Source: Moniliella sp. 'wahieum' (Eukaryota). From it: a DNA stretch of 64,000 bases. The translations under genes were made by a program, and so were the position numbers. Location: contig RSEE01000004.1 of NCBI GenBank assembly GCA_003971905.1, positions 186,001-250,000 on the forward strand, in the 5' to 3' direction. The notes below the pieces were generated by a model that saw only the letters and a program-made list of their open reading frames with translations, was not told the DNA's origin and made no database searches. Positions 1-58,683 of the stretch are shown here, one piece after another (within the stretch, counting starts at the first letter, position 1; every line of letters begins with the position of its first letter).

Positions 1-127
1 AAGGGTGCAGCCGAGGCCACGAGCGCTGCATCTGGGGTCGTGTCCGTGCAGGTGAGACTTTGGGGTCAAACTGCAAATCTCAGCCCATGCAACTGTCCTT
101 TCGGGGACAAAGGACACGGTGGATGGC

Positions 128-1769
128 ATGGATACCAGGGTGGAAGAGACAAACAAGTCTTGTCTGGTACTTTGCTTCCGTGATGGTGGTCTTAGCCTTT
201 TGCGCGAGGACGATTCGACCATTGAGCCCGCGTTGGCCGCAACTCTTGCGGCACCTGAGATGACATTGAGCTGGCCGGCCCCCTGGGATAAAGGAACGCA
301 ATTGCCTCCGCCCTCGCGTTGTATCAAGAAGGACCCGGACGGTGACGGATGGATGGAAGAGATGCGGTTTCCCCTCCCCCGAATCGCTACCCTCACTGCT
401 AGTGAAGTTGCAATGCCCTTGGCCCAAATTATCCTCGGCCGCAACAGAATCGAGGTTCAAGTCGCAATCATGGCGCGGTGGAAGGGTGTGCTTGAAGACT
501 CTCCGGAAGTTCTTCCATCTTCAGTCGTGTGGCAGCCGGACACCTTTGGCGAAAAAAAGTGGGACCTGGGCAGCCCATGATGGATAACACACTCCATGCA
601 TGGCGGATGTTGGCGCTGTACAACTTCAATGGCTCTTCGACTGCAACAAATCGAGGGTGGTGTCAGGCCAACACGTGCGCTTGGACGTGACACCAGCGGC
701 GGTGAAGGCAACCGACCTAGGTTCAACTCATGGGACACACCTCGTCCATGGATACGATAGTACGACGCTCAATCCCAAGGATTCATCGGACTGGGAAACG
801 ATAAAGTCGGCGCGGATCGTGCTCGGACGCCATCGCAAGTCGCGTGAGGCGGAAACAGTACACCGCCGGGTGGAAGCTTCTGTATGTCTCCTCTTGGTCA
901 CTGAGTATGGCATATTGACTTGCTCTCCCACTATCATTTTTTATCACAGATTACATTTGATATGGAACCCGCTAAGGTGTTGCTCAATCTGCCCGCGAGC
1001 GGAAGTAGCATTGCCAGTACAAATGTCCGTCCGCACTTGCCCGACCGTCGTCGACGGATGCTTTGGCGTGACTGGGGCCGATCACGGCCGCGACTGCAGG
1101 TACTGGACGGTCCGTATGGGGCCGGGTGCCGCCTCCGCCGTTGTCCAACCGGGTACACATTGCTCAACCTGCGGCTTCTAGGCCCCTTAGTTTTCAGCAC
1201 TCGCCGCTGCGACCCTCAGTGTGGATGCCGTCCCGTGACGATAAGCGCATGAACCACGGCAAAGGATTCTTCCGCCGCTCATTACACGCCGCGACGATTC
1301 CGTGGCGAATATCATGGACCAGCAAACGGCCAACGCTGCGTCACCCATTCCAGGCCCAGCGCATTTGGATGAGATCAACTGTCTCTCACCTGATGAGGTG
1401 GTCCCGCCGGTCGACCCTCATCTGAACGGGAACCACGGTCCAGTTGCACCGCCCGAGGAACCTATTGAAGAAGCACCTGTGCCGGATGAGCAAGAGAATT
1501 TCTCTTTCGAACATCCTGAACAGCATGTGGACCAAGAGGCGGATGTGACACTTGTTGCTATTCCTACATCGCCGATGGCGAAAGAGGCTGGACCAAGCCT
1601 GAAGCGCAAGCGGGCATCCGAGCCTGAAGACATACAAGACCAGCAGCAGCAGGCGCCGCCTACAAAGCGCGTTATGCGGGAACGCGTACGCGACTTGTTG
1701 TTGGGCGGAATAGTGGGTGCTGTCGCCACTTTCACTTCGCTTGCAGCTTTGGGAGCTAGCTTGGAGTAA
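128..1769 (+). CDS. FHA-domain protein with a C-terminal transmembrane (tail) anchor; frameshifted, probable intron ~882-949
   Basis: FHA-like motifs VVSGQHVRL...ATDLGSTHGTHL (ORF 600-1181). Acidic/Pro linker, then a terminal hydrophobic segment LLLGGIVGAVATFTSLAALGASLE* (ORF 1302-1769). GTATGT...TCACAG intron signals. Confidence 0.62.
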
Positions 1770-2359
1770 ATTGCCCAACTAGACTGCCTTACCTGGATTC
1801 ATGTTCATACGTGTTTTGCGTTTTGATACTTTTGGTACTATACTACGTCTCGCTTCGACTTCTCGCCCATCTTACTTTTTCATGCCTCTTCTCCCTTCTT
1901 CCCTTATCGGTTCTCATTTCTCTCTGCCTCCCTGCTCTACCCTGCGCACCGGATTAGCTACTGTTGATTTTCCTATGATCTCTCGCCGCCATATTGCCGC
2001 CAAGGGTCAAGTTGAAGTACCCCTCCTCCGCAAGAAGACGAGAGGGGGGGAGTGGTTGTTGGCCCGGAAATGTATGATTTTGACTTCCTCTAAACATCAT
2101 GCTGCTTTCAATCGGCATATAACAGTGGCAACGAATGCCCTCTATAAAAGTTCAGGTGGCAAGGCGTTCGCGAAATGGGCACCGTTAAGGTCACTACAAT
2201 GTGCTGAAAAGGAGTTTGTGGGTCTCTCGCCACTGTTCATAACGAGGTTCAAGCATCCACGACCGTAGATCTCGTTGCATGTTCTTCGGCTGGCGTGCTA
2301 GCTTTCCGGCCCCTCTAACATGGAACGGTTGCCGCTACGCGCCACGGGCTACGGAAGCC

Positions 2360-3260
2360 CTTAAAGCTTTTGATGCTTGATGCTTGAGGCTTCAGGCCTG
2401 AGGCAAGCCCCCCGAGGCCTGAGGCTCAGGCCTGAAGAACGCGTAGCGCGTAGCGCTTCCTTGCATACTGTGCGCATTCATATATTCTCACTACGTGCGC
2501 GTGAACGTTCACGCGTTCACGCCGTTCACGCGCTCTCAGATGTCAGATGTCAGATCTGTTCGATGATCTTAGATCTTAGATCTCACGTGCTCAGGCGTCC
2601 CAGCCATGCGGTGCGAGAGGGCCAGCATCATGCATCATGCATCATGCATCATGTGACATGGCGCGTCAGCGCGTCAGCGCTCAGCGCGCGAGTATAGCTG
2701 CCGTCGTTACCTGGTACATATTCATACCTCTCAGAGATCGCATCAATCTCAGATCTCGAAGGTTCAGTGCTTTGAGTACCAAACGTACCAACGCCGAGTA
2801 TAGTACTGAGTTGCTCAGGACGGATTTATACTGAGTCTTCTCACATCTGAGAACTACTCTCAGTGTACAGAGTACTGTGAGTTACTGAGAGAACTGGACT
2901 GGCATGCATTATCCGCCGGGGGAAGCAATGATGGGATGGCCACAGCGTTCGATTAGTATCCTCTTTCAATATTCCATGTCAAGTCAAAACAGAAGCTTCA
3001 ACCCTTGAAACCCTTCATGCTCTCAAGTTCAGCCTGGCCAATTCCAGGTATAGAGCTGATCGATGATCGATGTCGAGAGTATCGATCGATTATCAAAAGC
3101 GAGATCCAATTTCCAATGAAGGAACGCTACCAGCGTGAGTTTAGATGGCCGCAAACGTTTTAAGCTGTTACATGTTACGTGCTTTATATTGTCCAACGTC
3201 CAATCCCCTGTAACTAGGTAACTAGGTTGCTAGTTACTAGTTACTTAGTTTATACGTATA
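2360..3260. repeat. Cluster of 7-bp-period palindromic heptamer arrays (A-xy-y'x'-T-N)n
   Basis: AACGTT-C-ACGCGT 2504-2516; AGATCT-T-AGATCT-C 2571-2584; (ATGCATC)x3 2630-2650; also AGGCCT, AGTACT, ATCGAT, ACATGT and ACTAGT units. Confidence 0.9.
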
Positions 3261-3836
3261 GGCCGCGAGTTGCTTTGTGTATGTGCCCCCTTCCACCCCC
3301 CAATGGGGAGTCTACTCTGCGATTTATCGATTATCGCACTCACTGATCCGGAGGACGGGATTCAATTTATCAATGCGGCACCCTTACCCACACACTCAAG
3401 AGTGCCCCCTTTGTGTTTTCGACATCCATGATGCATGAGGCGGCGAGTGAGTATGCATGAGTGTCTGTGGGCACGTATATGGTGTACGAGAAGGGCCTAG
3501 GAGCTTGGCCGTTTGCCGATGCTCGCATGTTGCCCTCTCGCATGGGCATGCTCGCTCTATGTCTCTGCAATGCATATGGTTCCCGGTTATCGAGGTAATG
3601 ATCATCCTCTTGAAGCGCTGAGCTTCAGCAGCCTGAATGCTTTTTGATGGGGCAATGCACGATACCTGTCTAACCTCTCCATGAGCCATGAGCCTATGAG
3701 CTCCATAACTTGCGGAGGGAGGAGAATGGAGGATGTGTGTGACGCCACACTGGTGTAGTGGTGCAGCTGGCCCAAGTCCGGAACCTTCTGGTTCGTTCCG
3801 TATAATATTCCTTCCTGGCGGGCAGGAAAATATTAT

Positions 3837-4166
3837 CAAGAGCCGTTTTTCCCCCTGGTTTTGACGACGCGAGGATACTACGGCACCAAGACGATGGGCA
3901 AGTTGTTTGCGCATTGGAAGGAGTTGGCTACTAAGTCTCAGTGAAAATGGTTCCTCGCTCGGATGTCAACCACGTTCCTCCGTGTCCACACGCGCTTCCT
4001 AGGGTACGGGACCGGATGGCGTGAGCCGGAGGGTCCTGACATCCTGGCGATCCCCCTGGTTCCTTGACCTTAGTGGCGCCCCCAAGTAACCCCCGCAACA
4101 TGAACGGTTAGGTTTAGACGTAGCGTTCCCCCTATCCCAGCCTTAAGCTCTGCCAATGAATGGACG
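3837..4166 (+). mobile_element. 3' fragment (copy 1) of an RLE-type (CRE/R2-like group) non-LTR retrotransposon
   Basis: Diverged direct repeat of ~8119-8462. Translates EPFFPLVLTTRGYYGTKTMGKLFAHWKELATKSQ*KWFLARMSTTFLRVHTRFLG, matching the F-x-P-x-V...G tail of a restriction-like endonuclease domain. Confidence 0.72.
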
Positions 4167-4227
4167 TGGTCTAGCCTCCGTAGCTCATGTGCAATGCAAT
4201 ACACTACCAACTGTCTGCTCTCTGGTC

Positions 4228-4390
4228 TGTAACAATATGGTTATAAGGAGAGGTACGGGAGCTTTGAGAAGGGTAGGGCCTTATACAGCCGAGGGAACCG
4301 CGGAGCCGAGGGAGCTTCCCGGCGGGTAAGAGGGGTGATGCAGATGCCTATCCCACGCAGGAAGGGCGTGATTGGGGCATTGCCCCAACA
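4228..4390 (-). mobile_element. Possible short solo LTR
   Basis: Begins TGT and ends ACA, with TATAA on the minus strand. The flanking 5-mers TGGTC/TGGCT are only an imperfect TSD, and no second copy was seen in the window. Confidence 0.22.
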
Positions 4391-4459
4391 TGGCTTTTCA
4401 TTTTTGCATCTCCTCGCTGTTTCCTTCCGACAGAGGATCCAAAGGAGCAGAACCTGCTT

Positions 4460-5565
4460 GTGCTACGCGTTAAGCCATAACGCGTAACGCGGAACGTTTA
4501 ACGCTTAGGCTAAGCGCTAACATGTAACAGACATCCGGTGATCGGATCCGCTTTCCCTAGTAACTAGTAACTAGTAACAGGTGACCAGTGACGCGGTGAC
4601 GCCTGATGCATGATGCAGACGCGGGACTAGTGACCCTAGTGACCAGTGAGTGACTTGCGATGTGTGGCCCCACGTGGTCGGGACCGCGGGACCGGCGATA
4701 AATTCACGATTTGATCGACGAGAAGCTGAGGCGCAGAGGCTGCCGGGCAAGGCCAACCCTTCATGGCGTGGAGCCAGACATTTGATTGGTCCGAATTGTG
4801 TTCCGGACATTTGAGATGTTGTGGCTTGACGTAGTGGGCCAGAGTGGACCAGGTGAGGGCGTTGCGGAATTTGCCTCCTCTGGCAAGTACCAAGTTAGCG
4901 GGTAGCATCAATGTCAAAGAGCGTTGGCCCAATGCGCTACCGATGTTTGGCGCCTACGTATGGGCCAGAGCCCCCACGGTGATGCGTGCGAGCTCTGTCT
5001 GTCATCCGTGTCGCCGTGTCACCGGTCACCGGTCACCTGTCACCAAGTACACAGACCGGGACAGCACCCAGAACATAAACCACGTGGTACAATATAACCC
5101 AAAGTAACCGGTGACTACTGAGTACTGAGTACGAGTACTGATTAAATTACTGATTAATGATTAAGGCCTTAGGTCGATTAAGCTTCAGCTTTAAGGATTA
5201 ACGATTCGTGACGCGTGACGCGTGTTTCGGGACAAGCAGGGTGCGTCAGGCGTGACGCATGGCTGGTCTCAGATGTGGTTCACCCGGTGAGCGCTCAGCC
5301 TGAGCGCTGAGCTCAGGCGGAACGGTTACATGCAAGTCATGCACTGCAGATGCATCATGCATTATGCATCACCTGCATCACACATCCTACGCCCCATGCA
5401 TTCTCCACACCATACCCAACATGCATCACACATCAGCCGCCCCAACCTATCTGACCGCAACGCTGGGCCTCCGTCGCCACGGATGGAGCTGAGGAAGGGA
5501 GCAGATGGTAGGGCCAGCCATCAGGCCTCAGGCCTGACCTCAGGCCTCAGGCCCAGGCCTCAGGA
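4460..5565. repeat. Dense cluster of palindromic heptamer arrays upstream of the SSUH2-like gene
   Basis: (ACTAGTA)n 4557-4576; (ACCGGTC)x2 5021-5034; ACCGGT-G-ACTACT-G-AGTACT-G 5107-5127; ATTAAT-G 5153; ACGCGT-G-ACGCGT ~5210; ATGCAT-C-ATGCAT-T-ATGCAT-C 5350-5370; AGGCCT-C-AGGCCT 5523-5535. Confidence 0.9.
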
Positions 5566-5707
5566 GTGCCGCGGCTGGGCCCCTCATCTTCTGTGGGCAA
5601 CTCGAGGCGATCGATGGGCATGGTTGTCTGGTTATAATCCGGCCATTCTGCTTCCAGCAGCGTTCGCACCCAACTTTGGCCCTTCACTTCTGTCAGCTGC
5701 GGCCAGC

Positions 5708-7702
5708 ATGCAAGCCCAGGCCTACCCGGCGCCCTGCGCCCGCGCAACCACTTCCGCTCCCCCAGCGACAGCGATCCAAGCGGCCCTCCTACTCCCTCCG
5801 ACCACACCACGCCCTTCTACCTGCAGCGCAAGCCCCTCGTTCAGTCCAGCGATGCCCAGCCTGGTCGCGTTCTTATGCCCCAGACGCTATTGCGTTTCGC
5901 GGAAAGAGCCCTGACGAGCAGCAAATTGAACACCTGCGCACTATGCTCGCCCACATTGCTCCTGACGGTACGTGTCCCTATGACCCTTACCCGGTCACGC
6001 CTTTACAAAATTCTGACAACGTCCGCCTTCTGCCCATAGGCCACCAAGCGACGTCATACAATTATTACCCAAACGACCCCACGGACGTAACCGTGCCGGG
6101 TACGAACGCCGCGAGTGGAAGTTACGCCAGCCGCAACGCGTCTACGCCCTCGGTCGAGGCGTGCAACGCTGATGTCGAGGTCATCGAGACACTAGACGAG
6201 CGGGCAGCGGGCAAACCTCTGGTGCTGACTCCCATCAGCTCGTCCATCATGGGCGACGGAAGCGATGCCAAAGTTGTTTCCAACCTTTCTGCCGTCGATG
6301 TACAGTTCCTCGTGTCCAACCAAGAGCCCATCCCGCCCTCGTCGGAGGAGTTACGTGACCGGATTGTTAAGCAGCATCGGTTCCTCAGTCAGCGCATCGA
6401 GCCTGGTGCTAAGGCACGCAGCCGCACGAGAACCCACCTGCCGTTGACAAGGCCATCCGGGCTCGATTCAAGCCTATTGGCCCCGAAGAGGAGCAAGCCC
6501 GCCTCGCCGCCCTCCAGGTGCAAGTTGACAGCGTGATGGAACAGAGCGTTGTGCGTGGCGTCGTTGTCCTCGAGAAGCGGGAGGCTGTGTGGAAGCCGTT
6601 GGGCTCTGAGCCACCTGCTGACCGGGTGGGTATGGTAGAGACGGTGGAGCGAGCACCTGCTCTACCTTCTGCCTGGCTTTTGCCTCTGGATGCTACTTCG
6701 CACATTGCCACCGGCAAAGCCAAGAGCAAGAAGACGTTCCGTTTGCCGGAGTTTGAGGCCATGGCCGGTTGCTCTTCGTGCAACGCCAAGGGAAAGACCA
6801 TGTGCCCTCTTTGCAAGGATGCGGAGCCGGATGAATGTTTCTGGTGCGAGGGCACCGGCATCCGGAAGCGCAAGACGTGCGACAACTGCCACGGTCGCAA
6901 GATCCACGCTTGCCTAAGGTGCGACGCGCGGGGTACGATCGATTGCAACGAGTGTGGTGGTAATGGCCAAGTGTATGTGGGTGCGTTTGTCGACGTCAAG
7001 TTCCGCACCATCTCTCTTCCTCCCATTGCGGTCAAGGACTTGGTTTGCCCTGGTACCGGTCGGCCCCCGGTCACAGCCGAGGAGGTGGCCGAATGCTCTA
7101 AGCTGAAGATGGCCCAGACGATTTCCGAACTGTCCCGCGTCCAAGCTACCAAGGGATCGCCCTCGGTACCGGTATTGGCTCGCTGCGTGTGGCACAAGAG
7201 TGTTAAGCGCATTGTCTCGGTCACCCGCCCGGCTACCGTCGAGATGCCGGGACAGAAGAAGTTGGGTTTGAGGCACAAAGCGCATCAAGTGGTTGTGGAG
7301 GGAGATACCCACCGCTTCCTTGTCCCCAGCGACAAGACAGCTCCGATCGTTGAGATCACAGCCACGGCAGCCGCTGCTGCTGTTGCTGCCAATTCTCGGC
7401 CCGGCCCCTATTCCAGTAGTAGTATCTACATGGGTGATACTACGCCTTCTACTTATTCGACGGTGCCCACTCCGTCCACCTCCGTGGCCCACTTGCAAGC
7501 GCTGGGCGCCAGGCCGATGTTGTGCCTTCCGTTCCCGCCGTTCCAGATGCCTACACATCCCTTGAGGTGGGGAGTTACGTTCCGGCCCCCACTTCAACTG
7601 CGACAGTACAGGCCTATTAAGCCAATTACTGTTGCTGTGGTACCCCTGCTGCGCTCACATACGCACAAATGGGGCCACGCCATTTGCATAATGTTTCGTT
7701 AA
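5708..7702 (+). CDS. SSUH2-like protein with DnaJ-type CxxCxGxG zinc-finger repeats (no J domain seen); frameshifted
   Basis: CSSCNAKG, CPLC, CFWCEGTG, CDNCHGRK, CLRCDARG, CNECGGNG in ORF 6518-7702, preceded by E-K-R...W-K-P...P-S-A-W as in the SSUH2 family. Confidence 0.6.
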
Positions 7703-7887
7703 TTTCTTCTCATTTTCAGTCGCACACTTTGCTGCATCATTAATTCTATGTTCTCTTCCCTTTCTTTCACTCCAATTGTTGCCATTCCCGTATAGTGCTT
7801 ATTGCAGTACCTTCCCCCACATCATCTCTTTGTGCATACCCACATTTGCAAACCTCCTTTCATCCTAGCCTATAGTCCATCTTATTA

Positions 7888-8466
7888 ACAGAGCGCACCG
7901 ACTAGCCTACCGCGTCATGGGGCCCGGAGCACTGGGAGGACCAGGAATGGAAGTGGACCACACGCTACGAGACAGGGAACGCAGGAGGCGCAGAGCGCGT
8001 ACCGGAGAGTGGTGCACGAGAGCACCGCGACGCCTTTGGAACGCCGGGAGAAGGAGCTCTGCTTCGGCTGCTGGAACAAGCAGAATGCGAGAAGAACGCC
8101 AAGTACCACGGACGCACCCAAGAGCCGTTTCCCCCTTGGTTTTGACGACGCGAGGATACTAGCACCAAGACAACGGGCAAGATGCTTGGGCATTGGCAGG
8201 ATTTGACTACTGATTAGTGACTCTCAATGGAAATGGTTCCTCGCTCTCGGATGTCTATACCACGTTCATCCGTATCCACACGTGCTACCTCGGTATGGGG
8301 ACGGATGGAGTGCACCAGAGGGTCCTGATATCCTGGCGATTCCTCTGGTTCCTTAAGCGGTGTTGACGCTATACTAAGCAGCACACGCAAGATGAACGGG
8401 TCGGTTTATAGGCGTATAGCGTTTCCCTGTCCCAGCCTTGAGCTCTGTCAATGATACGGATGCAAT
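7888..8466 (+). mobile_element. 5'-truncated, degenerate RLE-type non-LTR retrotransposon (copy 2)
   Basis: Reconstructed across indels: TERTDYRVMGPGALGGPGMEVDHT...LLEQAECEKNAKYHGRTQEPF-PLVLTTRG. This gives the R-x-D...D...K-x-x-K-Y...F-x-P-x-V motifs of the PD-(D/E)xK restriction-like endonuclease. The 3' ~340 bp is homologous to 3837-4166. Confidence 0.8.
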
Positions 8467-8479
8467 ATAGAGATAGTTG

Positions 8480-8529
8480 GTGTTGATCGATGATCATCCA
8501 TTCCTTTATTGCCGATCATCGATCAACAC
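8480..8529. repeat. Perfect 16-bp inverted repeat with an 18-nt spacer
   Basis: GTGTTGATCGATGATC (8480-8495) is the exact reverse complement of GATCATCGATCAACAC (8514-8529). Confidence 0.92.
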
Positions 8530-11079
8530 ACGTAATACACATGTGAGACGCGTTTGATGAGCTGGATGCTGGGTTTGCTCCTGGCTGTTTTTCTTTCTCT
8601 CCCCACAGAGCATGAAACTTCTTCTTCACCAATAACTACATTTTGTCTCCGTATGTGTGTGTCTCTGTGTGCTTTTGTTTGGGAGACCAGATAGCAATCG
8701 GTTCCCGTATTACCCAGTACTAAACGACAGTGCTCGGTATACTCACGGTTAAATAGTCAAAACACACGACAGTGAACTCATGTGCCTCGGCAGTGACTGT
8801 CACACATGTCACAGTCGAGGCTAAGGCGAGGGAGACCAGAAGCGGGACTAGGCCATGGGGTGTAGCAATCGTTCGTGGGGAAGAAGCAAGAACAGAGGAC
8901 ATGGTGCGAAGTGGAAGTAACAGGGAAGGAGCGAGATGCTCGAGACGAAGAAATCGGAAATGGGAGCGAGATCAGCCAAACGATGACAGTGATCGACGTA
9001 CTGTTTTGTTCATTTTTAATTGCATGTGGCAGCTCGCGATTGTGCACATAAAAAATGGAGACTGTAACAGTCGCGGGCGATGCGAGTGGGGCCAAGTACC
9101 AAGAGAAGCAAATGATGCACTGCTAGGGGAAAGGAGAACCGGATCGGCGAAGAGCGGTGAGAAAAATTTACCTGGTTATAGCCAAGGGGACCGTGGCAGA
9201 GAGAGTAAATTAAATACCTGCTTCCTTCTTGAAAAGGAATGTCTGAATCCTCCTGCACGGTAACCGGTAAGGCCTAAGGCGTGACATATGCAAGGAATGC
9301 CCCGAATCCCCAATGGAGCTTGGGATACGATACCAATGTCACTATCCCACAGTGTGTGATGTGCCACAAGTCGGCCAGAACGTCTCGCCAAGGCCTGCTG
9401 TTGGCCAGGCAAAACGCTTCTTGTATATTACGTCTATTTTATCATGTCTCACAAAATGACGATCTCTCTTGTGTCTGACACAGCTTCATGGCGGTTTTAT
9501 AGCTGCACTCACGTCACGCGTCACTGTCTGGTCTTCTCGCAATGGGTCTCAGCTCAGCCTCCGTTACATGTTACATATCGATTGATGCTTTGACCACACC
9601 GATAGAGTCGGAAATGAAGGAGGCCAAAAAGTTGGGCTCCGGAAGTGTGTGTAGAATGCCCGGAGGAAAGGACTGCTGGCACGGGGCGGACCCGCCAGGG
9701 CCTCGCTGGGGTTTGTGGTGTAAAATCCCTTAGGAGACGGTAGGTCGACTCACGGTAGTTTCGGGCTCGGCTAGTTATAGTGGATCCGAGCGGAGCTAGG
9801 GAACGAGAGGCAATTGGGTGCGAAGCTGAAGGGCTACTGCACATGTGGGGAGGCTGCGTGTTCTCCGACTTCGGCCGTAGTAGTAACACACGTGTCTGAA
9901 GCCTCCGGAACTGAGGGATGGGTAGTCGGAGGCAGTACGGGTCAAACACTGCCTGAGCTGAGACTGGACAGGGACGGCTGTCCGCGTCGCTGGAACGGAA
10001 CCCACGCGAGGAGCTGTTGCTACGGGGAATCTACGCAGCTGAAGGATGGCTCGGGCGACTGGACGGATGGAGAGCTGGAGGACGAGGGCGGAAGAGGAGA
10101 TGGGAGCTAAGTGGAAAGGAGGCTGCCTGTACTGAATCAATTGGCTGGAAAACGTGCAGGAACTGGACAAGGTAGGTGGGAAGGGACGAGAATGGAAGGT
10201 GAAGGAAATGAGCCCCACCTACCAGAGGTACAGGCTAGACCAAAACGGAAAACGGAGACACAATAGGGGGTGTAGAATAAAGGAAGGCAAGTTAAAAGAG
10301 GGATTGGAAAGGAAATAAGTATTAAGTGGTGACGAGGCGACAGTCGTCGCAATGATAGTGAAAGCTTGGTGTCCTTATTTAGGCCATCTGACTGTCCCCT
10401 CGGGCCACCGTACCTCATTTAACTAACCATCATTATCACACCAGTGGGTTGGACGTCGGAACGCGCTCCACTGGGCATGTACAGAGCAGCAGGCCTTCGC
10501 TTGGCTCGGAACATCTCGGCTCCAACGCAGCCCCTAAAACAGCTTCCAAGCGCGAGCTGTGTGAGCAGGCGCGGATTGCGAAAACGGCAACCATTAATCG
10601 CCAGTTTTGCACAGGCCAGCGAGATCGTCCGCTGTCTCGCCATCGGCCGGCAATCGATAATCCGATCAACGTACGGCCTAACCCATCGTTAAAGTTATTG
10701 TCTGTCGACATTCCAGTGTGTTAGTACTATGTATGCGACAGTGCACCGTGTTGAGCTGGGTGGTTGGACGAGGTACACAGCAAACTATTCAAGGCTGTCG
10801 CTGCTGGACACAGCAAACGAGAGATGTGCGAATGACTACATCCGACAAAACCGTTTCAGGGGACTGAACAGATGCATACAGGGGAGAGACGGCGAAGGAA
10901 AGGGCATGAGCAAAGAACCGGATGAAGAGAGAGACGAAGGAGGTACCAGCCAATAGGCCAGACCTACAGGATAGGACAAGAGGGCCCGGTAGCGAGAGAT
11001 ACAAAAGGGCGAGAGGATCCAGCTTCACAAAAGGGGGGGAGACAGGAAGGAGCGTATCCAGTCTGCGCCGTATGAGTGC

Positions 11080-12604
11080 TTACTCCTCATCGGCGGTAAG
11101 CCAGATAAAGAAGTTGCGGGCAAACCAGTCGGGGGCATCTCGACCAAGAGATGGAATACAGTCGCAATAACGAGGGCCAGGGGCACGCAGGCAAGAACTG
11201 GGCAGCGACGATGGCGCCTGATCCCGTAGCGTGACCAGCGACGGACATGTGCTGCCAAATCAGCGGGCCGAGCGATTGGAAAATGGCGCCCTCGACAAGG
11301 AAGAGAGAGTAGGAGATGCGGCCAAGGAAAAGGAGAACAGGGTTGTTGGCAAGAGTGCGCGAGCGGAACCAAACATCTCAAGCAGGATCATTGCATTAGC
11401 CGCAACAAACCAGTCGTCGATACGCGGGTAGCCGGTCGCGGAGGGGTCAAAGTCGGTCCAGAGCAAGCCCGTCTGCGAGTTGTCATGCGCAACCCACTCG
11501 TTCCGGTGGTCTGGCGCCGCATCGCCGAACACATACTTGAGCATCACGCCCACACACAACCAAAATGCCGGAATAGTCCAAGCAGGAATGACGTTGAATA
11601 GTTTCTTGGTCCCCAGGGACCCGAGGTCGTACACAACCACGGCCTCGGCCAAAAAGAGACCGGTAAGGGAGTAGTAGGCAAAGTTGCCAAGCCACCAGGA
11701 CCAGATCCAAAGGATCGCACCAAAGATAAACTTGGGGTAGCCACGAACGTAGGGAAGCATAATCGCAAAAGCGTACACCGAGTACGACTGAATGAAGTTA
11801 CGCGTTACAGTCCAGAGGACACCACGGGGTGGGAAGAAGTCCATGGGCACAGTGTTGATAGCGTTGGAGTTGTCAAAGACATACGCAGTCAGTGAGTCCA
11901 AGTAGTTCAGCACGCTCTTCCACTTGGCTGCCGGGCGACAAAGGTGTTGTTCAGGGCATAAGAGAAGGGCTCAGCGGCACCAAAGGCATTTTGAGAGGCC
12001 ATGATGGTCACAATTGCTAGGGCAACAGCCAGAGGGAAAAAGACGCGGATGGGCGGCGGAAGGCGGCGCCAGCAATGGAGGTGTTCGTGCGGCGCTCAAT
12101 GAATGTGTGCACGCCGACACGAGCCGCAATAAGGAAGAAAAAGGTGGACTGCAGCGTGCCATCCCACAAGAGCGGCTGGAAGACCTTGCGAACAGTGCTC
12201 TGCCACTGAGGCGAATGCTCAAGAAGGGAGCTGGGCGCACGTTAAACTCATCCGTGTCGGTTGCAATGGCTGCAAAGGAAATCGAGTCAGTCAGTGCTTC
12301 GCCGGCAAAGAAAGGGGATGCAGGGGCATACCGGCGCCAAGAGACGGAAAAAGGCCCAGAGGCAGACCTCGAAAGCGATGAGGCCGCGCAGTGCCTGGAT
12401 GTAGGGCACGCGTTCCGAGTAGGAACGGCCGTAATCGTGGGCAGTGTCGTTGGTAAAGGCAAAGGGAGTCACGCCAGTCAGCTCGGCAGTGGTTTCGAGC
12501 TTCTTGTACCCCATTTCGGAGATGGGGCCGGCCATGGGCTCGACAGGCTGGGCCGGAGTCTGCTGCTGGACCTCGGACTTCTCCCGCAGCTTGGAGAGAG
12601 GCAT
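11080..12604 (-). CDS. Multi-TM acyltransferase-3 (OafA/Acyl_transf_3)-like membrane O-acyltransferase; intron 12270-12331; frameshifted
   Basis: N-terminal RVPYIQALRGL motif, many hydrophobic helices, GVLWT motif, C-terminal FHLLVE...WFARNFFIWL. GTATGC...ACTGAC...GCAG intron. Confidence 0.7.
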
Positions 12605-12884
12605 GATGATGGTGGGGGTGGGGGTGGTGGGGTGGACGAACGAGCTGGGTGGGGTGGGTGGGAGGAGGTTTTGGCTGTGGTGGGCTGGCTGCTGCCAATG
12701 CCCGCTGCTCGTGGCTCCTACGCCGCATGGGGGGCCTACGGGCGCAGGCAGCCACACTGGCCCCAGGCTGTCGTCTCCTGGGGTGTCCGACGCAGCGGCA
12801 GTGGCGCCGTGCGAGACCGCTGCGACGGGTGAGGCCGAGTGTGCTATCTGACGCATGATTTGCGACAGAGGGGCCACAATCGGA

Positions 12885-15800
12885 GATGGGTGATGCATGA
12901 TGCATCCAAGCTTTCAAGCGGCAACTTCGTGGCCGCAGGCCTCTCAGGATCTCAGGCCCTCAGCGCTCAGCCGCTGATCCTAGTGGATCTGAGATCTGAC
13001 ATGTGCAGGCGGCAAGTGCGCGCAGATGCGCGCTGGCTGAGCGCAGCGGGTAGTCGACTGCGTCACGCGCCATTTCCGCCCACCTGTGGTGCTCGTTTGC
13101 AGGCAGTATGGCTGGTGCTTGGACAGTGCTTGGGCGGACGCTGTGTGACCGGCGGGACGCGTGACATGGACATGCGGCTGGTATCGATCGTATCGGTGAC
13201 ATGAGACCAGTGACCGGTGACCTGCGCCTCAGATAGTCCCTGCAGGTCCCTGCTCGCGTGGGGGCTTGGGTCATATGCATCACATGACACTGCTCTCGTG
13301 GCTCAGCACCCCCACACCACAGCCCCATGCAACCACACCATGTATCATTCATCGCCCGCATCCTAGCGACGCGTGAAGCGCGACGCCAGCACTCGGCCAA
13401 ATGATGCACAGACATGATGCGTGATGTGTGATGCATGATGTGCCGCCCTGACGCATGATGTTTGTTGCATAATGTGTGATGTCATATAGGTGACTAGGTG
13501 ACTGCGCCAAGCCAGCCGCACAATTTGAGATTCTGATATCCGAGGTTCTCAGAATTCACCATTCTGATGCTCGGCGTCAGGCTGAGGCCCTCAGCCTGAG
13601 GCCGGAGGCTAGATACTGGCCAAGCCCCAGGCTTGACAAAGTAATACTCGCCGCTGAATTTCAGTTCACTCAGATCTCAGAACCACACAGCTGTGCAGAG
13701 TGATGTGTGACGCGTGACGAACGTACGAGTGACAGAACCGATTGAGAACGTTTGAGGCGTTGTCGTGTTGTCTGCTGTCCAAACCCTTTGGTACTTTTGA
13801 TCCCCACCGGGGGCTTGTCGTTTCGCTTCTGAAAACGGAAACGGCATTGTGTCATCCTCTGCCTGCCCCCCGCCCCCCCCAGATCCCCGTGGCTTCCGCT
13901 GTACTTGCCATGTTCTCCATGTGCATTGGCATGATTGATAGTCCTCGCCCACAACAGATGCACAGGGAGAGACCCCACGATCGCACGTCGAACGTAGTGA
14001 AATCCGCGTTACACCCTGGACTGATAGTGCAGAGTACTGATATAACGCGTAACGATAGCAGATGCATACGTTGGACACTGTTGAAAAAACCCCAAGTGGC
14101 AAGACTGGACAAGAGCCTGTCACATGTCCGCTGTCCGCGTTCAGCGCCACCAGCCACACCAGCAACACATATGAGCGAAACAGTATAAGCTACTCAGATA
14201 TCGATAACCGTCAAGCTTCAAGCTTCAAGCTTCAAGCTTCAAATTCGTCAAACCGAGGACACGTACGATCGAAAACGTAGACGGTAGCTTTTACCGGTTA
14301 CCCACCTGATAAAACCTGCCGGCTTTAACGAAAACAGGCACGTTGGCTTGGTGCCCCAGCATACCCCCGCTTGGCAACTGTGGTGTCTGTATATAGTCAC
14401 CGTAGTGTGATCGGTAAGCGCTAAAACGCGTCGGTCAGCGGTGTATATGGTAGTTTTTCGCACTGTATAATGTCCACGGCGCCAGTGAACCCCACGCCGC
14501 AGCCACTCCCACTCTGTACGCCCATCGTGCATCGTCTGTAGAGCCCACATTGTGCGCTACCCATTGCAAACCTTATCGTCCTCCGCCGGCGCCTCTGCCC
14601 CCTATTTAATACTATGGACGGGTGCGAGAGAGCCTTCTTCCATGTGGCTCAGCGCTCGGTTGCTCATACGCTCTCTCAGATACTCACAGAATCCATATGG
14701 TCTTTTTTGGCCCCACCTTCTCTCCTGCGTGCTTACAATTGCTGAACGCACGCCGCCGCTGTGGGGACCGCGAGCGAGCAAGCTCTGCTCTGCAACGAAA
14801 AGCCGCACACCAAGTTGCGAGCGGCCAACAGTTCGTTGTCGCGGTAGTGCGCGTAGCGTTCAACCATTCTGTACCAGTATTATACTAAGGCAGTGTATAC
14901 TTGGCAGGCGGGGGGTTGATGCGGTTGATGCATGTGACGCGTTGACGCAGTTGTTGCGCTAGGGCTAAATGCTGGGCTGATGCACTGATGGCGCTGATGC
15001 ATGATGCCCAACGCATATGTTCTGTTTGATCGATGATCGATGACCGGGATGCGGTACCGTATCGACGTATCGACGACCGGCTGATCATGCATCATGCATT
15101 GTGCATCCTGAGCTATTCAACGTTCAACCATCCACCGTTTGATAATCTCGTATCCGAACTATGCACTGCTCCCAGAGCCGGATCACCGGATCACCACCGC
15201 CTCCATCGAAATCGGCGGCGATGGGACGCGGGATGAATGTGATGAACAAGTGCGGACGATCGATGACGATAGGTGGACTGTCCCAGTCCTCTGTCGGAGA
15301 GCACCACCAGCCGAGTGCAAGCCATTTGACAGAAAAACTTGCGAATGAGCCGGTGACCGTGACTAGGTGACTAGTGCCCGATGATCTGGTGATGCAGGTG
15401 ATATACCCCGCGTGGCATAGCATCTTGGAGGGCTGGGGGCTGCCTGCGGCGCTCAGTCTGAAGTTCAAGCTTAAAGCTTGAAGTTTTAACGTTTAACTGA
15501 ACGCATCTCGGGTCTCCGGCCACTGGCGTCACCGCGTCACCGGGCGCTGCGGCCAGGGGCATACGTACGTTGGAGCGGTGGCGCCGTGCGGATTAGAGGC
15601 GGGTGGGTTGTGGCGCTGGCAAGGCCCGAGCAGACTGGCTGAGGCCGAGCCGCCCGGTGCGACCCCCGCTGACCCCCCGGGACAGAGAGCGCGAATGTCG
15701 CAAGCGTAACCGCTGACCGCTGATCGATGAGGCAGTGAGAACAGTGCCGGATGTCACCAGTCACGCGTCACGCGTCACGAGTCACTAGCTTCAGCGCACG
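12885..15800. repeat. Extended cluster of palindromic heptamer arrays in the divergent acyltransferase/GT2 intergenic region
   Basis: AGATCT-G-ACATGT ~12992; (AAGCTTC)x4 14213-14240; ATCGAT-G-ATCGAT-G 15029-15042; AAGCTT-A-AAGCTT-G-AAGTTT-T-AACGTT-T 15467-15494; (ACGCGTC)n ~15763-15776. Confidence 0.9.
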
Positions 15801-16079
15801 CCTAATTGTGTGTGATACCATTGTGGTTTCAAGCACAGCACGGCACCAGTATCACAGCCCCCTGCACTGGCGCGGAGCAGCTCACTCGGCCAGCACCCTG
15901 GCCAGACAAAAGCAGTTGGTTCCTACACAGCTCCAGTGCCCCACCGGCACTGCCTCTCTCCCCCCCTCGCCCGCACCTAGGCCACCGCCCACCTCGCCTC
16001 AAAACTAGGCGCTGCCAGCCTAACCACCGCCCCTTTTTCCCACCACCGTCTCTCTCGACCTACTGGGACTGCTGCCACG

Positions 16080-39474: not shown

Positions 39475-41293
39475 CTAATTTGGGCGGCGGCCTGGAGGAG
39501 GTGCACCGTTGGATGCCGCATCATATTCAAAGGCGGGAAGGACGAGGGGGGGTTGTGTGGCCCCCGTTCCCAGATGAATGGGTTGCAAGGCAACGGGCGC
39601 AGGGCATCGTTGGCGGGCCGCCCCTAGTTTGATTATGTGGCTGGCTCGGCCCAATGGAGGGGGCGGGGAACCTGATTCAACAGAAGCGCGTGTCCGATGC
39701 TGGCCAATCGAAGTTAGCGTGGGCACCTCGAACGATTCCACCGATGTCGTATGCCCCGGGAACGAGTCAACCGCCCGTGGCTCCGCACCGGCCATCCGAG
39801 CCGCCTGCTGCGGAAAAGCCAGGGGTGCGGTAGGTAGGACCTTCCCAGCTGAACCGGTGGGGCTGTTGAAACCCTCGTCCGTTCGACGGATCCAGCTCAG
39901 AGCGCTGTCCTGTAGGGAAACCTCCGGTAGCCAGCTGCTGGCTGAGCAAGTACTGGTATATAAAGACTTGAGACGGATCCAATCCACTCGCAACCCAAGC
40001 TGAGCTCGCTGGAGCGCTTCAGAGTCATACGCGCCACGAAACATCCTACCTGTGTTGTTGTCGAAAACAAGAGGAGGGTTAGCCAGCCCTCAGCACAGCC
40101 ACGGCAAAGAAATGGGTACGGTCAACTCACCCTCTCGTGTCCGCGAAGCGAACCGGGCGGGCGGAAGAGGGTCGGGTTGGTCTGTGTCTTCGGTACGAGA
40201 GCTGAACCGAGATGCACTTCCCTCCATGCAAGCTCCATCAATCGCCGTGATCGCTGCCTCGGCCTCGGCGGGTGTAGCCATCGTGACAAACCCAAACCGC
40301 GGGACTCGGTTGTGCCCTGATGATAAACAACGTTGGCATGAAGTACCTGTCATTTGTGCGTTTATTGCACCACCGCCACCCAGCTGCCCGTTAGCGCACT
40401 CGGCAGCTTCACAGCACGAATATAAAAGCACTCTTCTCCCCGCAGAGGGGATGTAGGTGAGAAATACGTACCTGTCCATAAGGTTCGAACATAGGCCAAA
40501 CCCTGGTGGTCAATGTGGCTGGGTAAGCAACGGATATAGAGTGCATTGCCTGGATTGCGTTCATCTGCCTCGCCGTCGTAGCCGTCGCCTGGGTGGGAGA
40601 AGTGGGTACGGTTGTGTGTGTAGAGTAGTCACGCTCGGCGCGCTGAACGTGGGGCACGAGGCAGCGGACTCCGACTCCGACTCCGGTCCCGTCTCTGCCG
40701 TGAGGCCCATTGGCCCCGATCCAAGTCCATGTCCAGCTCAGAGCTGGTTTCGCGATGGCGGAGGGTAGCATTACCCTGTGAGGGAATCGCTCGATGGAGA
40801 ACGGCGGCGGGTGATGCACATGACCTTCCGGGTCATCAGATCCACTGTTGGTCCAAACAGAGGGTCGTCCTGTTGAAGGGGACTGAGAGGCGGAGGGGGA
40901 CTGAGAGGCGGAGGGGGACTGAGAGGGGAGGGGGACTGAGAGGCGGAGGGGGACTGAGAGGCGGAGGGGGAAGAGTGGTCAAGACGGACCGAGTCAGAGC
41001 GGACGGACCAGCGAGAGCTGTGATCGTAGTCCTGATGGTTGTCAAACATGGGGGGAGAGAGTTGGGACGGAGAAGTAGGTGCTTGTTCGTCGCTGAGAGC
41101 GTCGCTGGGCGGGTGGGCATGACGAACTGGGGTCGAGGTAGGGATGGGGAGGGGGGGCAGAAGATGAAAGGTAGGGAATAAGGCAAGGCAGAACACGTGT
41201 CAGTGCATGCAAGAGCAGATGAGACGCGGAGGGTTGCGTGGAGGCGGTGCGAGGCAGAGAAGAGAGAGACACACGGGCAGTAGCAGCCGCCAT
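39475..41293 (-). CDS. Single-RRM RNA-binding protein with a Pro/Ser-rich N-terminus; boundaries uncertain
   Basis: NALYIRCLPSH...MFEPYGQ (RNP2 region, followed by a GTACGT intron) and RFGFVTMATPAEAEAAITAIDG (RNP1). Confidence 0.6.
40878..40966. repeat. 18-bp coding tandem repeat x5 (PPPLSP on the minus strand)
   Basis: GGGGACTGAGAGGCGGAG x5; the third unit lacks one C. Confidence 0.92.
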
Positions 41294-44480: not shown

Positions 44481-44561
44481 GGCTGCAGCCAGGTGCAGGC
44501 ATCGTTACAAAACTGGCGCCATGCCGGTTCCGAAATAGCGCCGCCGGTTAAATTTTAAAGT

Positions 44562-56135: not shown

Positions 56136-57977
56136 TCATTGGCGTTGGACCAGGGGAGTATGCTCATCATGATCCATCCCCTGGATCTCAAGCTCCGATG
56201 GGGGTATCGGCGAAGTCTGCATTGCCATCGTCGATGCAGTGGTGGGATCAGCAAGTGGGATGTAGGCCTCAGCTGCGGTAGCAGGCGTGTAGGCATAGGA
56301 TAGGAATATGATGTTCTCCCGGGGGGTACGTGTATCCCCCAGACACGGTGGAAGTGCGTCCGTCTGACGGGTAGAATGTAGTGTAGTCTGAAGCAGGAGC
56401 TGTGCTGTTGCCTACAGCAGAGGAAGCGGCGGCTGCCTCGGCCGCCTCTCGCGCCCGCTGCTCTTGAAGCTCAGGCGGGTCCAGGTGAGAATAGTCCGGG
56501 TAATGCAACGGGTCACTCGTCGCGTCTGGAGCGGATGCGTCAGCCCCCGTAGATGTACGATGGCCCAAATTTCTTCCGCCCCCAGCGGCCCCATCAACAT
56601 CGTTGTCGATATCATGGTCCGTGTAGAGGTCAGCCAGGGCAGCAGTGTGCATTTCGTGTGCGCCCTCGCCCCCAAGGGATCAAACGAAGGCCAGTGCCCA
56701 CCCGCTTCTTCATTAAACGGGTCCATCCGATCCCCAGACTTTGGTCGATTTCCAAAACACATAAAGTACGCTGACCCCGTCCGGGCCTTACGGCGACGGA
56801 GGAGGCAAGCCAGTAGCAAAAGGAGTGTCAAAGCCGCTACGCCACCAACCACCCCCCCCACCCACCGCCCTCCAACCACACCACCACTTGTCCCTCCATC
56901 ATGGTGCGATGAGGCCAAGCCGCCCGGACTACCGGTTTGAGTAACCATCACGACAGTAGTACCGGTGACGGGGATCAAGGAGCCGTCGCTGTTCGTACTT
57001 GTTGAGGTGAATAAGCTGAGAAAACTGGAAGTACGAGTCGAAGGTGAGGCATTACTAGCGCTCGAGCTGATCGTGGGTGAGGTTGACGAAGAAGTTGGGC
57101 CATCGGAGCTAGTGCTCTCTTTATTCGAGCTCGAGCTGATGCTTTGCTGTGTTGAAGTTGGGTCGTGCTCGGGACCTGGGAGGACGAATGCGTGAACGGT
57201 TGGGTGGATGAGGCTTGACTGGACGATTGCACCGAAGGCTGGGTCGAAGACTGTTGAGTTGAGGACTGGGTAGAAGCCTGAGTTGAGGGAGAGGTTGAGG
57301 GGGAGATGGAAGGAGAGGCGGAAGGAGAGGTGGAAGGCGAGGTAGAAGGAGAGGTAGAAGGAGAGGTGGAGGGAGAGGTAGAAGGAGAGGTGGAAGGAGA
57401 GGTAGAAGGAGAGGTGGAAGGTGAAGTGGAAGGCGATGTAGAAGGAGAGACGGAATCAGGCGTGGAAGGAGAAGTGGACGGTATGGTTGAGGGTGGGACT
57501 GAAGGTGAAGTTGATGGGGTCGAAGATGTATCATCGGGCGTAGTGGAGGGGGAAGGAGTATTAGACACAGAATGATCGGCCGAAGAAGGATGGTCCGTAC
57601 TGGGGGTATGGGTAGACGTGGGATCGGGGGCAGGCTCGCTGTTGACGGAGGCGTTTTTTGTGTTTTTCACCTCCGCTTGGAGACACTGGCTGGCTGTGGG
57701 TGTCGTCTCCACTACCAGATGAACTGGCCTGCCGAGCAAAGTTGGAAGCTGAAGTGTGCGCCTGCGCCTCTGCCCCTCGAACTACATTTGGGCGTGAGGT
57801 GGGAACTGTGCACACCGAGAGGATCGTCAGCCGCTAAGCCCATAGGACTTCACTATAGTCTCATCGTGTCATGGAGAGCCCAAAAGATTGGGGGGCACTA
57901 TAATGGGGTGAGGGAGACGAACACGTACACAGTGGGGCGGCACGCGCAGCAGGGAGTAGCTGATTGGCACTGCGCAT
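56136..57977 (-). CDS. Ser/Thr-rich single-pass membrane protein (Mid2/Wsc/mucin-like cell-surface sensor)
   Basis: (STSP)n ectodomain, TM VGGVVGGVAALTLLLLLACLL followed by RRRK, then a cytoplasmic tail. The start is uncertain. Confidence 0.7.
57305..57450. repeat. 12-bp coding tandem repeat (STSP)n
   Basis: About 10 degenerate copies of GGAAGGAGAGGT/AGAAGGAGAGGT. Confidence 0.9.
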
Positions 57978-58592: not shown

Positions 58593-58683
58593 GGGTTCGT
58601 GGTGTAGTGGTATCATGCCTCTTTAGGGTGCTGTTCTTTAGCACGCGTAGAGGTGGTCCTCGGTTCGATCCCGGGCGGACCCC
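58593..58683 (+). tRNA. tRNA-Pro(AGG) with a 19-nt canonical intron (58629-58647)
   Basis: Acceptor GGGTTCG/CGGACCC; D arm TGGTGTAGTGGTATCAT; anticodon stem CCTCT/AGAGG with AGG at 58625-58627; T loop GGTTCGATCC; Pol III terminator TTTTT at 58684-58688. Confidence 0.95.

Follow-up and report, generated by a model that had tools for sequence, protein, structure and literature searches.

A decayed copy of a mobile element in the window (the whole 64,000-nt stretch of genomic DNA analysed here) carries 7 nt that neither of its two relatives contains. These 7 nt are derived, and apart from a single base they correspond to a direct duplication of the 5-mer TGACT with the dinucleotide AG, which is the final CT of the 5-mer in reverse-complement form, set between the two copies. 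The same 5+2 arrangement, written below as TNAxy + y'x' + TNAxy, is prevalent in the window. We assign a probability of roughly two in three to the reading in which a dead retroelement copy would have received the 7 nt through a stereotyped mutation of this kind, followed later by one C-to-T substitution.

Self-BLAST of the window returned a sole repeated pair besides the tandem array at 57.3 kb. Its members, copy 1 and copy 2 (Table 1), aligned over 3837–4159 and 8119–8454, respectively, with 78.0% identity in 341 columns (E 1.7e-67). Their global alignment contained 55 substitutions over approximately 320 aligned bases and nine indels (in order 1, 2, 7, 2, 2, 1, 3, 4, and 1 nt), of which the 7-nt indel was the largest. 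The substitutions were spread flatly over the codon phases (20/19/16), without codon periodicity. The 7-nt difference is situated between two anchors common to both copies, namely CATTGG (3912–3917 in copy 1, 8191–8196 in copy 2) and AAATGGTTCC, which begins at 3945 in copy 1 and at 8231 in copy 2. The initial annotation had counted 27 nt between the anchors in copy 1 (3918–3944) vs. 34 nt in copy 2 (8197–8230) and had reported TGA triplets starting at 8204, 8211, and 8218 in copy 2. Both the lengths, equal to a net gain of 7 nt at the site, and the triplets, as read from the copy 2 sequence starting at 8204 (TGACTACTGATTAGTGACTCT), agreed with that description. MAFFT positioned the additional 7 nt at 8211–8217, a placement that is ambiguous across 8211–8220; removing any 7-nt window that starts at 8211–8214 leaves an identical pre-insertion string.

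Table 1. Positions of the two element copies and of the parts of the derived insertion, numbered from the first base of the window.
Feature	Position	Strand	Description or basis
Copy 2 of the element	7890–8454	+	Decayed 3' fragment; P0003 residues 127–278, then ~100 nt of non-coding tail; tblastn, three-frame reading
Copy 1 of the element	3837–4159	+	Shorter 3' fragment; P0003 residues 204–278, one frame
Stretch of ancestral length in copy 1 (9 codons)	3918–3944	+	Anchors, alignment, BLASTP
Three heptads (TGACTAC-TGATTAG-TGACTCT) with three in-phase TGA	8204–8224	+	
Derived 7 nt, MAFFT placement	8211–8217	+	Global alignment, model comparison
Rule part: left copy of the 5-mer	8211–8215	+	Now TGATT
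Rule part: inverted AG	8216–8217	+	
Rule part: right copy of the 5-mer	8218–8222	+	TGACT
Lone departure from the canonical product	8214	+	T; the rule predicts C

Copy 1 could be read in a single forward-strand frame of 76 codons, with its own stop at 4065–4067 followed by a tail, and with one in-frame TGA (3942–3944). When this TGA was read through as X, a phmmer search of the frame against 1,835,955,588 representative proteins gave one match, P0003 (E 2.5e-31), which has W at the position of the TGA. P0003 is an uninterrupted ORF of 279 amino acids from a 1174-bp JGI/IMG contig; it is labelled 'hypothetical protein' and its cluster is a singleton. BLASTP aligned the copy 1 frame to P0003 with 52 identities in 75 positions and 0 gaps, the site included, and no frameshift separates the two. 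Around the site, HWKELTNETKWRWF in P0003 is aligned with HWKELATKSQ*KWF in copy 1, the stop standing opposite W. A tblastn search of the window with P0003 recovered both copies (Table 1), the match to copy 2 being distributed across all three frames; since this match begins at residue 127, the true start of copy 2 is near 7890. The two copies have a common 3' end point (..CAATGA) and unrelated flanks, and their 5' truncation points, given that there are two copies only, differ (P0003 residue 204 in copy 1 and 127 in copy 2).

The comparison with P0003 supplied the polarity of the 7 nt. Because the copy 1 frame matches P0003 without gaps, 27 nt is the length of the coding state, and the additional 7 nt are derived. 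This is what had been claimed earlier from the breakage of the frame, and it is borne out by an outgroup, one predicted protein from another source (the 1174-bp contig), which like copy 1 lacks the 7 nt and is aligned gap-free through the site. In the shared coding part, all six indels (−1, −2, +7, +2, +2, and −1) are located in copy 2. Two further single-base losses upstream bring the frame-breaking indels of copy 2 to eight, compared to none in copy 1, and one of these eight derived indels is of the rule type. Either the surroundings of copy 2 are indel-prone, or some of the 1–2-nt indels are assembly errors. To compare codons, copy 2 was projected onto the codons of copy 1 with inserted columns skipped, which left 72 comparable codons. 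Identity amounted to 51/72 between copy 2 and P0003, 50/72 between copy 1 and P0003, and 54/72 between the two copies. The three sequences are about equidistant, and two of them, including the only intact one, are without the 7 nt. When the 7 nt are omitted, copy 2 remains in the same frame on either side of the site. As two of the three lineages lack them and the frame is continuous once they are omitted, the 7 nt are a derived feature of copy 2.

To characterise the insert itself, all ways of deriving the observed string from the string minus 7 nt were compared. A 5-bp duplication of TGACT combined with an inverted AG left one mismatch (T for C, 8214) and was the unique best model, whereas plain 7-bp tandem duplications left at least two mismatches each and 14 other model variants also stood at two; the margin is one mismatch, in a comparison in which many variants were tried. 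The earlier claim of a single substitution between the insert and the predicted product was right, and the model behind it was the single best of those compared. An alternative partition, with a 4-nt copy and three inverted bases, yields the same product. The site displays what an excision footprint of the flank-hairpin type is expected to contain, i.e. a 5-nt direct duplication (one copy mutated) and an inverted AG. The AG precedes the right-hand TGACT, the dinucleotide being repeated and accompanied by its reverse complement, as the rule asks. The 4-mers between the TGA triplets, CTAC and TTAG, each contain one broken palindrome pair and neither is an exact palindrome; the right-hand one, TTAG, is one substitution from CTAG. 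In the pre-insertion string, TGACT was present twice, at a spacing of 7 bp.

The arrangement found in copy 2 recurs throughout the window. Exact TNA-palindrome-TNA 10-mers (hereafter TNA units) were found 83 times, vs. a mean of 2.3 and a maximum of 6 in 50 Markov simulations. These exact units form 71 runs, 62 of which consist of single units. The flank rule TNAxy + y'x' + TNAxy was obeyed by 64 of the 71 runs, compared to a chance expectation of approximately 12% (simple arithmetic); the flanking dinucleotide was repeated on both sides in 9 runs, on the left only in 19, on the right only in 36, and on neither side in 7. Triples of TNA that agree in N and recur every 7 bp, to which the triple at 8204 belongs, numbered 30, whereas the summed mean over 100 first-order Markov simulations was 0.60. 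A table of duplication length against inverted length was confounded by period-7 arrays and was set aside. Removal of 7 nt at other units gave a few longer reading frames, which were not counted as cases because long ORFs readily occur by chance at such a G+C content. A search of the window for transposons through their inverted repeats mostly returned the TNA units.

Three other origins of the 7 nt have to be weighed. In replication slippage, the heptad TGACTAC would have been copied in tandem and two later substitutions would have given AG and T. This is unlikely in our judgement, but it keeps some weight because the margin between the models is one mismatch and TGACT was already present twice at 7-bp spacing, so that the string minus 7 nt holds a 5-nt direct repeat on which slippage could act. 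Moreover, the window is rich in 7-bp tandem arrays, and with 55 substitutions over ~320 aligned bases the copies are old enough to have been substituted afterwards. However, slippage needs two specific substitutions within 7 nt vs. one for the rule model, one of these must produce exactly the inverted dinucleotide that is seen in 64 of the 71 runs, and slippage leaves the 62 single-unit runs unexplained. Compared with slippage at 7-bp mini- and microsatellites, the site is alike in that one 7-bp period was gained beside a similar heptad; unlike there, the new heptad matches neither neighbour in full (5/7 and 4/7 identities, by eye) and it carries an inverted dinucleotide.

It is very unlikely that an unrelated insertion, e.g. 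filler DNA at a repaired break, came to resemble a TNA unit by chance, since 22 of the 16,384 possible 7-mers differ from the canonical insert by at most one base (simple arithmetic), and triples of such quality (at most two broken palindrome pairs, the one at 8204 included) were seen 28 times vs. 0.18 per simulated window. This has to be set against the inexactness of the unit at 8204 and the indel-prone character of copy 2, with its seven other small derived indels. Hardly credible at all is the suggestion that copy 1 has lost 7 nt that were present ancestrally, or that the extra bases of copy 2 are an artefact of assembly or sequencing. An indel cannot be polarised from two copies alone, but here the P0003 ORF and the copy 1 frame are both without the 7 nt in a gap-free alignment, inclusion of the 7 nt would bring three TGA into the frame, and a complex, non-homopolymer string of 7 nt would be an unusual read error.

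The reading preferred here, a 5+2 mutation in a dead copy, would involve the following steps. A mobile element, probably of the non-LTR (LINE) type, would have left two 3' fragments, both truncated at the 5' end, between genes of this smut-related fungus. Once copy 2 had ceased to code, its TGACT would have been hit by a stereotyped mutation that appears to be widespread in the non-coding DNA of the genome, in which a 5-mer starting with TNA is directly repeated and its final two bases are inserted between the copies in reverse-complement form (here AG), with a net gain of 7 nt. A subsequent C-to-T substitution in the left copy would then have produced the present TGATTAGTGACT. Such a product is expected when broken ends with a 5-bp stagger or target duplication are rejoined, one end having first formed a hairpin whose opening lay 2 nt from its centre (P nucleotides). 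The likeliest sources of such ends would be the insertion and later excision of a cut-and-paste transposon, or a break made by a nuclease and repaired likewise. Judging from its decay, the DNA of copy 2 would be neutral. It lies ~190 bp beyond the stop codon of the forward ORF at 6413–7699, within ~3.5 kb that contain no recognisable gene, and because of this location the unit at 8204 is not obviously within a promoter.

The initial annotation had reasoned that the units arise by mutation and had pointed out that a single event was at hand. The derived, rule-like +7 supports the core of the first statement; the second also stands, in the sense that one event was recorded, which is not an exact instance of the unit. 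Other TNA units are known from their pattern alone, whereas in copy 2 the pre-event sequence could be inferred independently, from the reading frame that copy 1 and the intact P0003 have in common. The unit can therefore be recognised as a +7 gain that is derived and has the composition predicted for it, a 5-bp copy and two inverted bases. This argues that TNA units are written by mutation and are not kept as designed signals. What is new here is one polarised before/after case, a fairly ordinary single data point, and the polarising of indels in dead repeats is a recipe for obtaining the rate and recency of the process.

A more specific proposal, which we regard as possible yet doubtful, is that the units, instead of being relics of transposons that vanished long ago, result from a process still at work after the death of copy 2, the agent being either a flank-hairpin transposase with a 5-bp target (RAG/Transib-like, not hAT-like) or a TNA-cutting host nuclease with a 5-nt stagger. 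If such a post-death process were real, the site would provide the first before/after view of a new class of footprints that is unusually stereotyped, and these footprints would be datable and countable with dead repeats as the clock. Flank-hairpin transposons, including hAT elements (Ac/Ds, Hermes), whose target duplication is 8 bp, and Transib/RAG, with a 5-bp target duplication, leave excision footprints with P nucleotides. The site in copy 2 resembles these footprints in its retained direct target duplication, its short inverted copy of adjoining bases, and its net gain of a few bases. It differs from them in the duplication length (5 bp vs. the 8 bp of hAT) and in its stronger stereotypy, as the inverted bases are always two and always taken from the end of the 5-mer that is far from TNA; furthermore, the window yielded neither an element nor a terminal repeat or transposase.

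In Ustilago maydis, '10-bp repeats' have been interpreted as footprints of transposable elements (Ali et al., 2014, PMC4081816, citing Laurie et al., 2012 and Schirawski et al., 2010). They share with the TNA units the smut lineage and the very large number of tiny intergenic repeats read as transposon scars, and TNA + 4 + TNA likewise measures 10 bp, a likeness by length alone. Unlike the present case, the account of these repeats in that paper gives, in the portion that concerns us, neither a before/after case nor a 5+2 rule. Full-text literature searches returned nothing more specific on footprints in Ustilago and nothing relevant on excision footprints generally. The class of TNA units is probably already in print.

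Copies 1 and 2 are probably, though by no means certainly, dead fragments of a LINE-type element. The non-LTR reading is adopted because the two copies have different 5' cut points and one 3' end. P0003 has a C-x-C-x7-H-x3-C motif at residues 66–80 (by eye), and its nearest named clusters in the ESM-Atlas all contain zf-RVT, with scores of 0.88–0.90 that serve as a lead only. In the R2, CRE, and NeSL types of non-LTR retrotransposons, a Cys-His motif and a nuclease-like region follow the reverse transcriptase, and the element fragments together with P0003 may lie downstream of such a reverse transcriptase region. Like dead copies of non-LTR retrotransposons, the pair has a common 3' end, variable internal starts, and decay by frameshifts and stops, and a Cys-His motif is located upstream in P0003. 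Unlike in those elements, no reverse transcriptase, poly(A), clear target duplication or Pfam match was seen here, and one relative was detectable in 1.84 billion representative proteins. The label 'retrotransposon' in the initial annotation is thus plausible but unproven, with the anatomy and a weak language-model lead (the zf-RVT neighbours) in its favour and the lack of a recognised domain against it. The P0003-like family appears, from these comparisons, to be a rare or undescribed lineage of mobile elements.

Pfam assigned no family to the 84 ORFs of at least 45 amino acids around the copies and gave no match to P0003 at E ≤ 1. Among the 118 ORFs of at least 150 amino acids in the window (E ≤ 1e-5), a transposase, reverse transcriptase or integrase was found in 0; a reverse transcriptase was accordingly absent from the Pfam results for these 118 ORFs, for the 84 shorter ones near the copies, and for P0003. 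By eye, neither copy has an A-rich tail or a convincing target-site duplication, and such duplications could have been erased by decay. A PDB search by sequence with P0003 gave 0 matches, and the AlphaFold2 model of P0003 alone had a mean pLDDT of 36.4. Word-index protein searches yielded no match for the forward ORF at 7889–8203; for P0003 they yielded none among longer proteins and only itself among proteins of similar length. In metagenome contigs, a protein-guided scan with P0003 detected no relative, and an exact 24-mer common to both copies had 0 matches.

Several other identities were considered and rejected. A SINE was dismissed on finding no Rfam match in 1–16000 and no tRNA in the copies, and a solo LTR was abandoned after the coding frame had been found. 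An apparent CCHC 'gag knuckle' at ~8060–8100 proved to result from translating the P0003-like frame out of phase. The minus-strand ORF at 3399–3965, which extends across copy 1, was judged spurious, because only its first part is common to copy 2 and P0003 matches the forward strand.

Some further features of the window were recorded. A perfect 16-nt inverted repeat begins 26 bp past the 3' end of copy 2, with arms at 8480–8495 and 8514–8529 that are 18 nt apart; each arm holds one exact TNA unit (TGA-TCGA-TGA or its reverse complement), and the structure could be a tiny hairpin or the remnant of an element. The sequence TGACTACTGAGTACTGA at 5112–5128 starts with the same heptad, TGACTAC, as the site at 8204, follows the mirror form of the rule, and has an exact GTAC palindrome. 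Removal of 7 nt extends the spanning stop-free frame at 57209 (149+265 codons, minus strand) and at 44548 (135+106 codons); these may be further units in former coding DNA, or may be due to chance in G+C-rich sequence. The forward ORF at 6413–7699 is an open frame of 429 codons with, by eye, a CxxC cluster like that of a DnaJ-type zinc finger, and it had no Pfam match at E ≤ 1e-5. Two tandem arrays are located inside long ORF regions, one at 57288–57478 with a 12-bp unit (GGAGAGGTGGAA, 15.9 repeats) and the other at 40878–40971 with an 18-bp unit (5.3 repeats). Additionally, ARAGORN called a 91-nt 'tRNA-Stop' with anticodon tta at 58593–58683, interpretable as a tRNA with an intron, as a suppressor-like gene or as a false positive.
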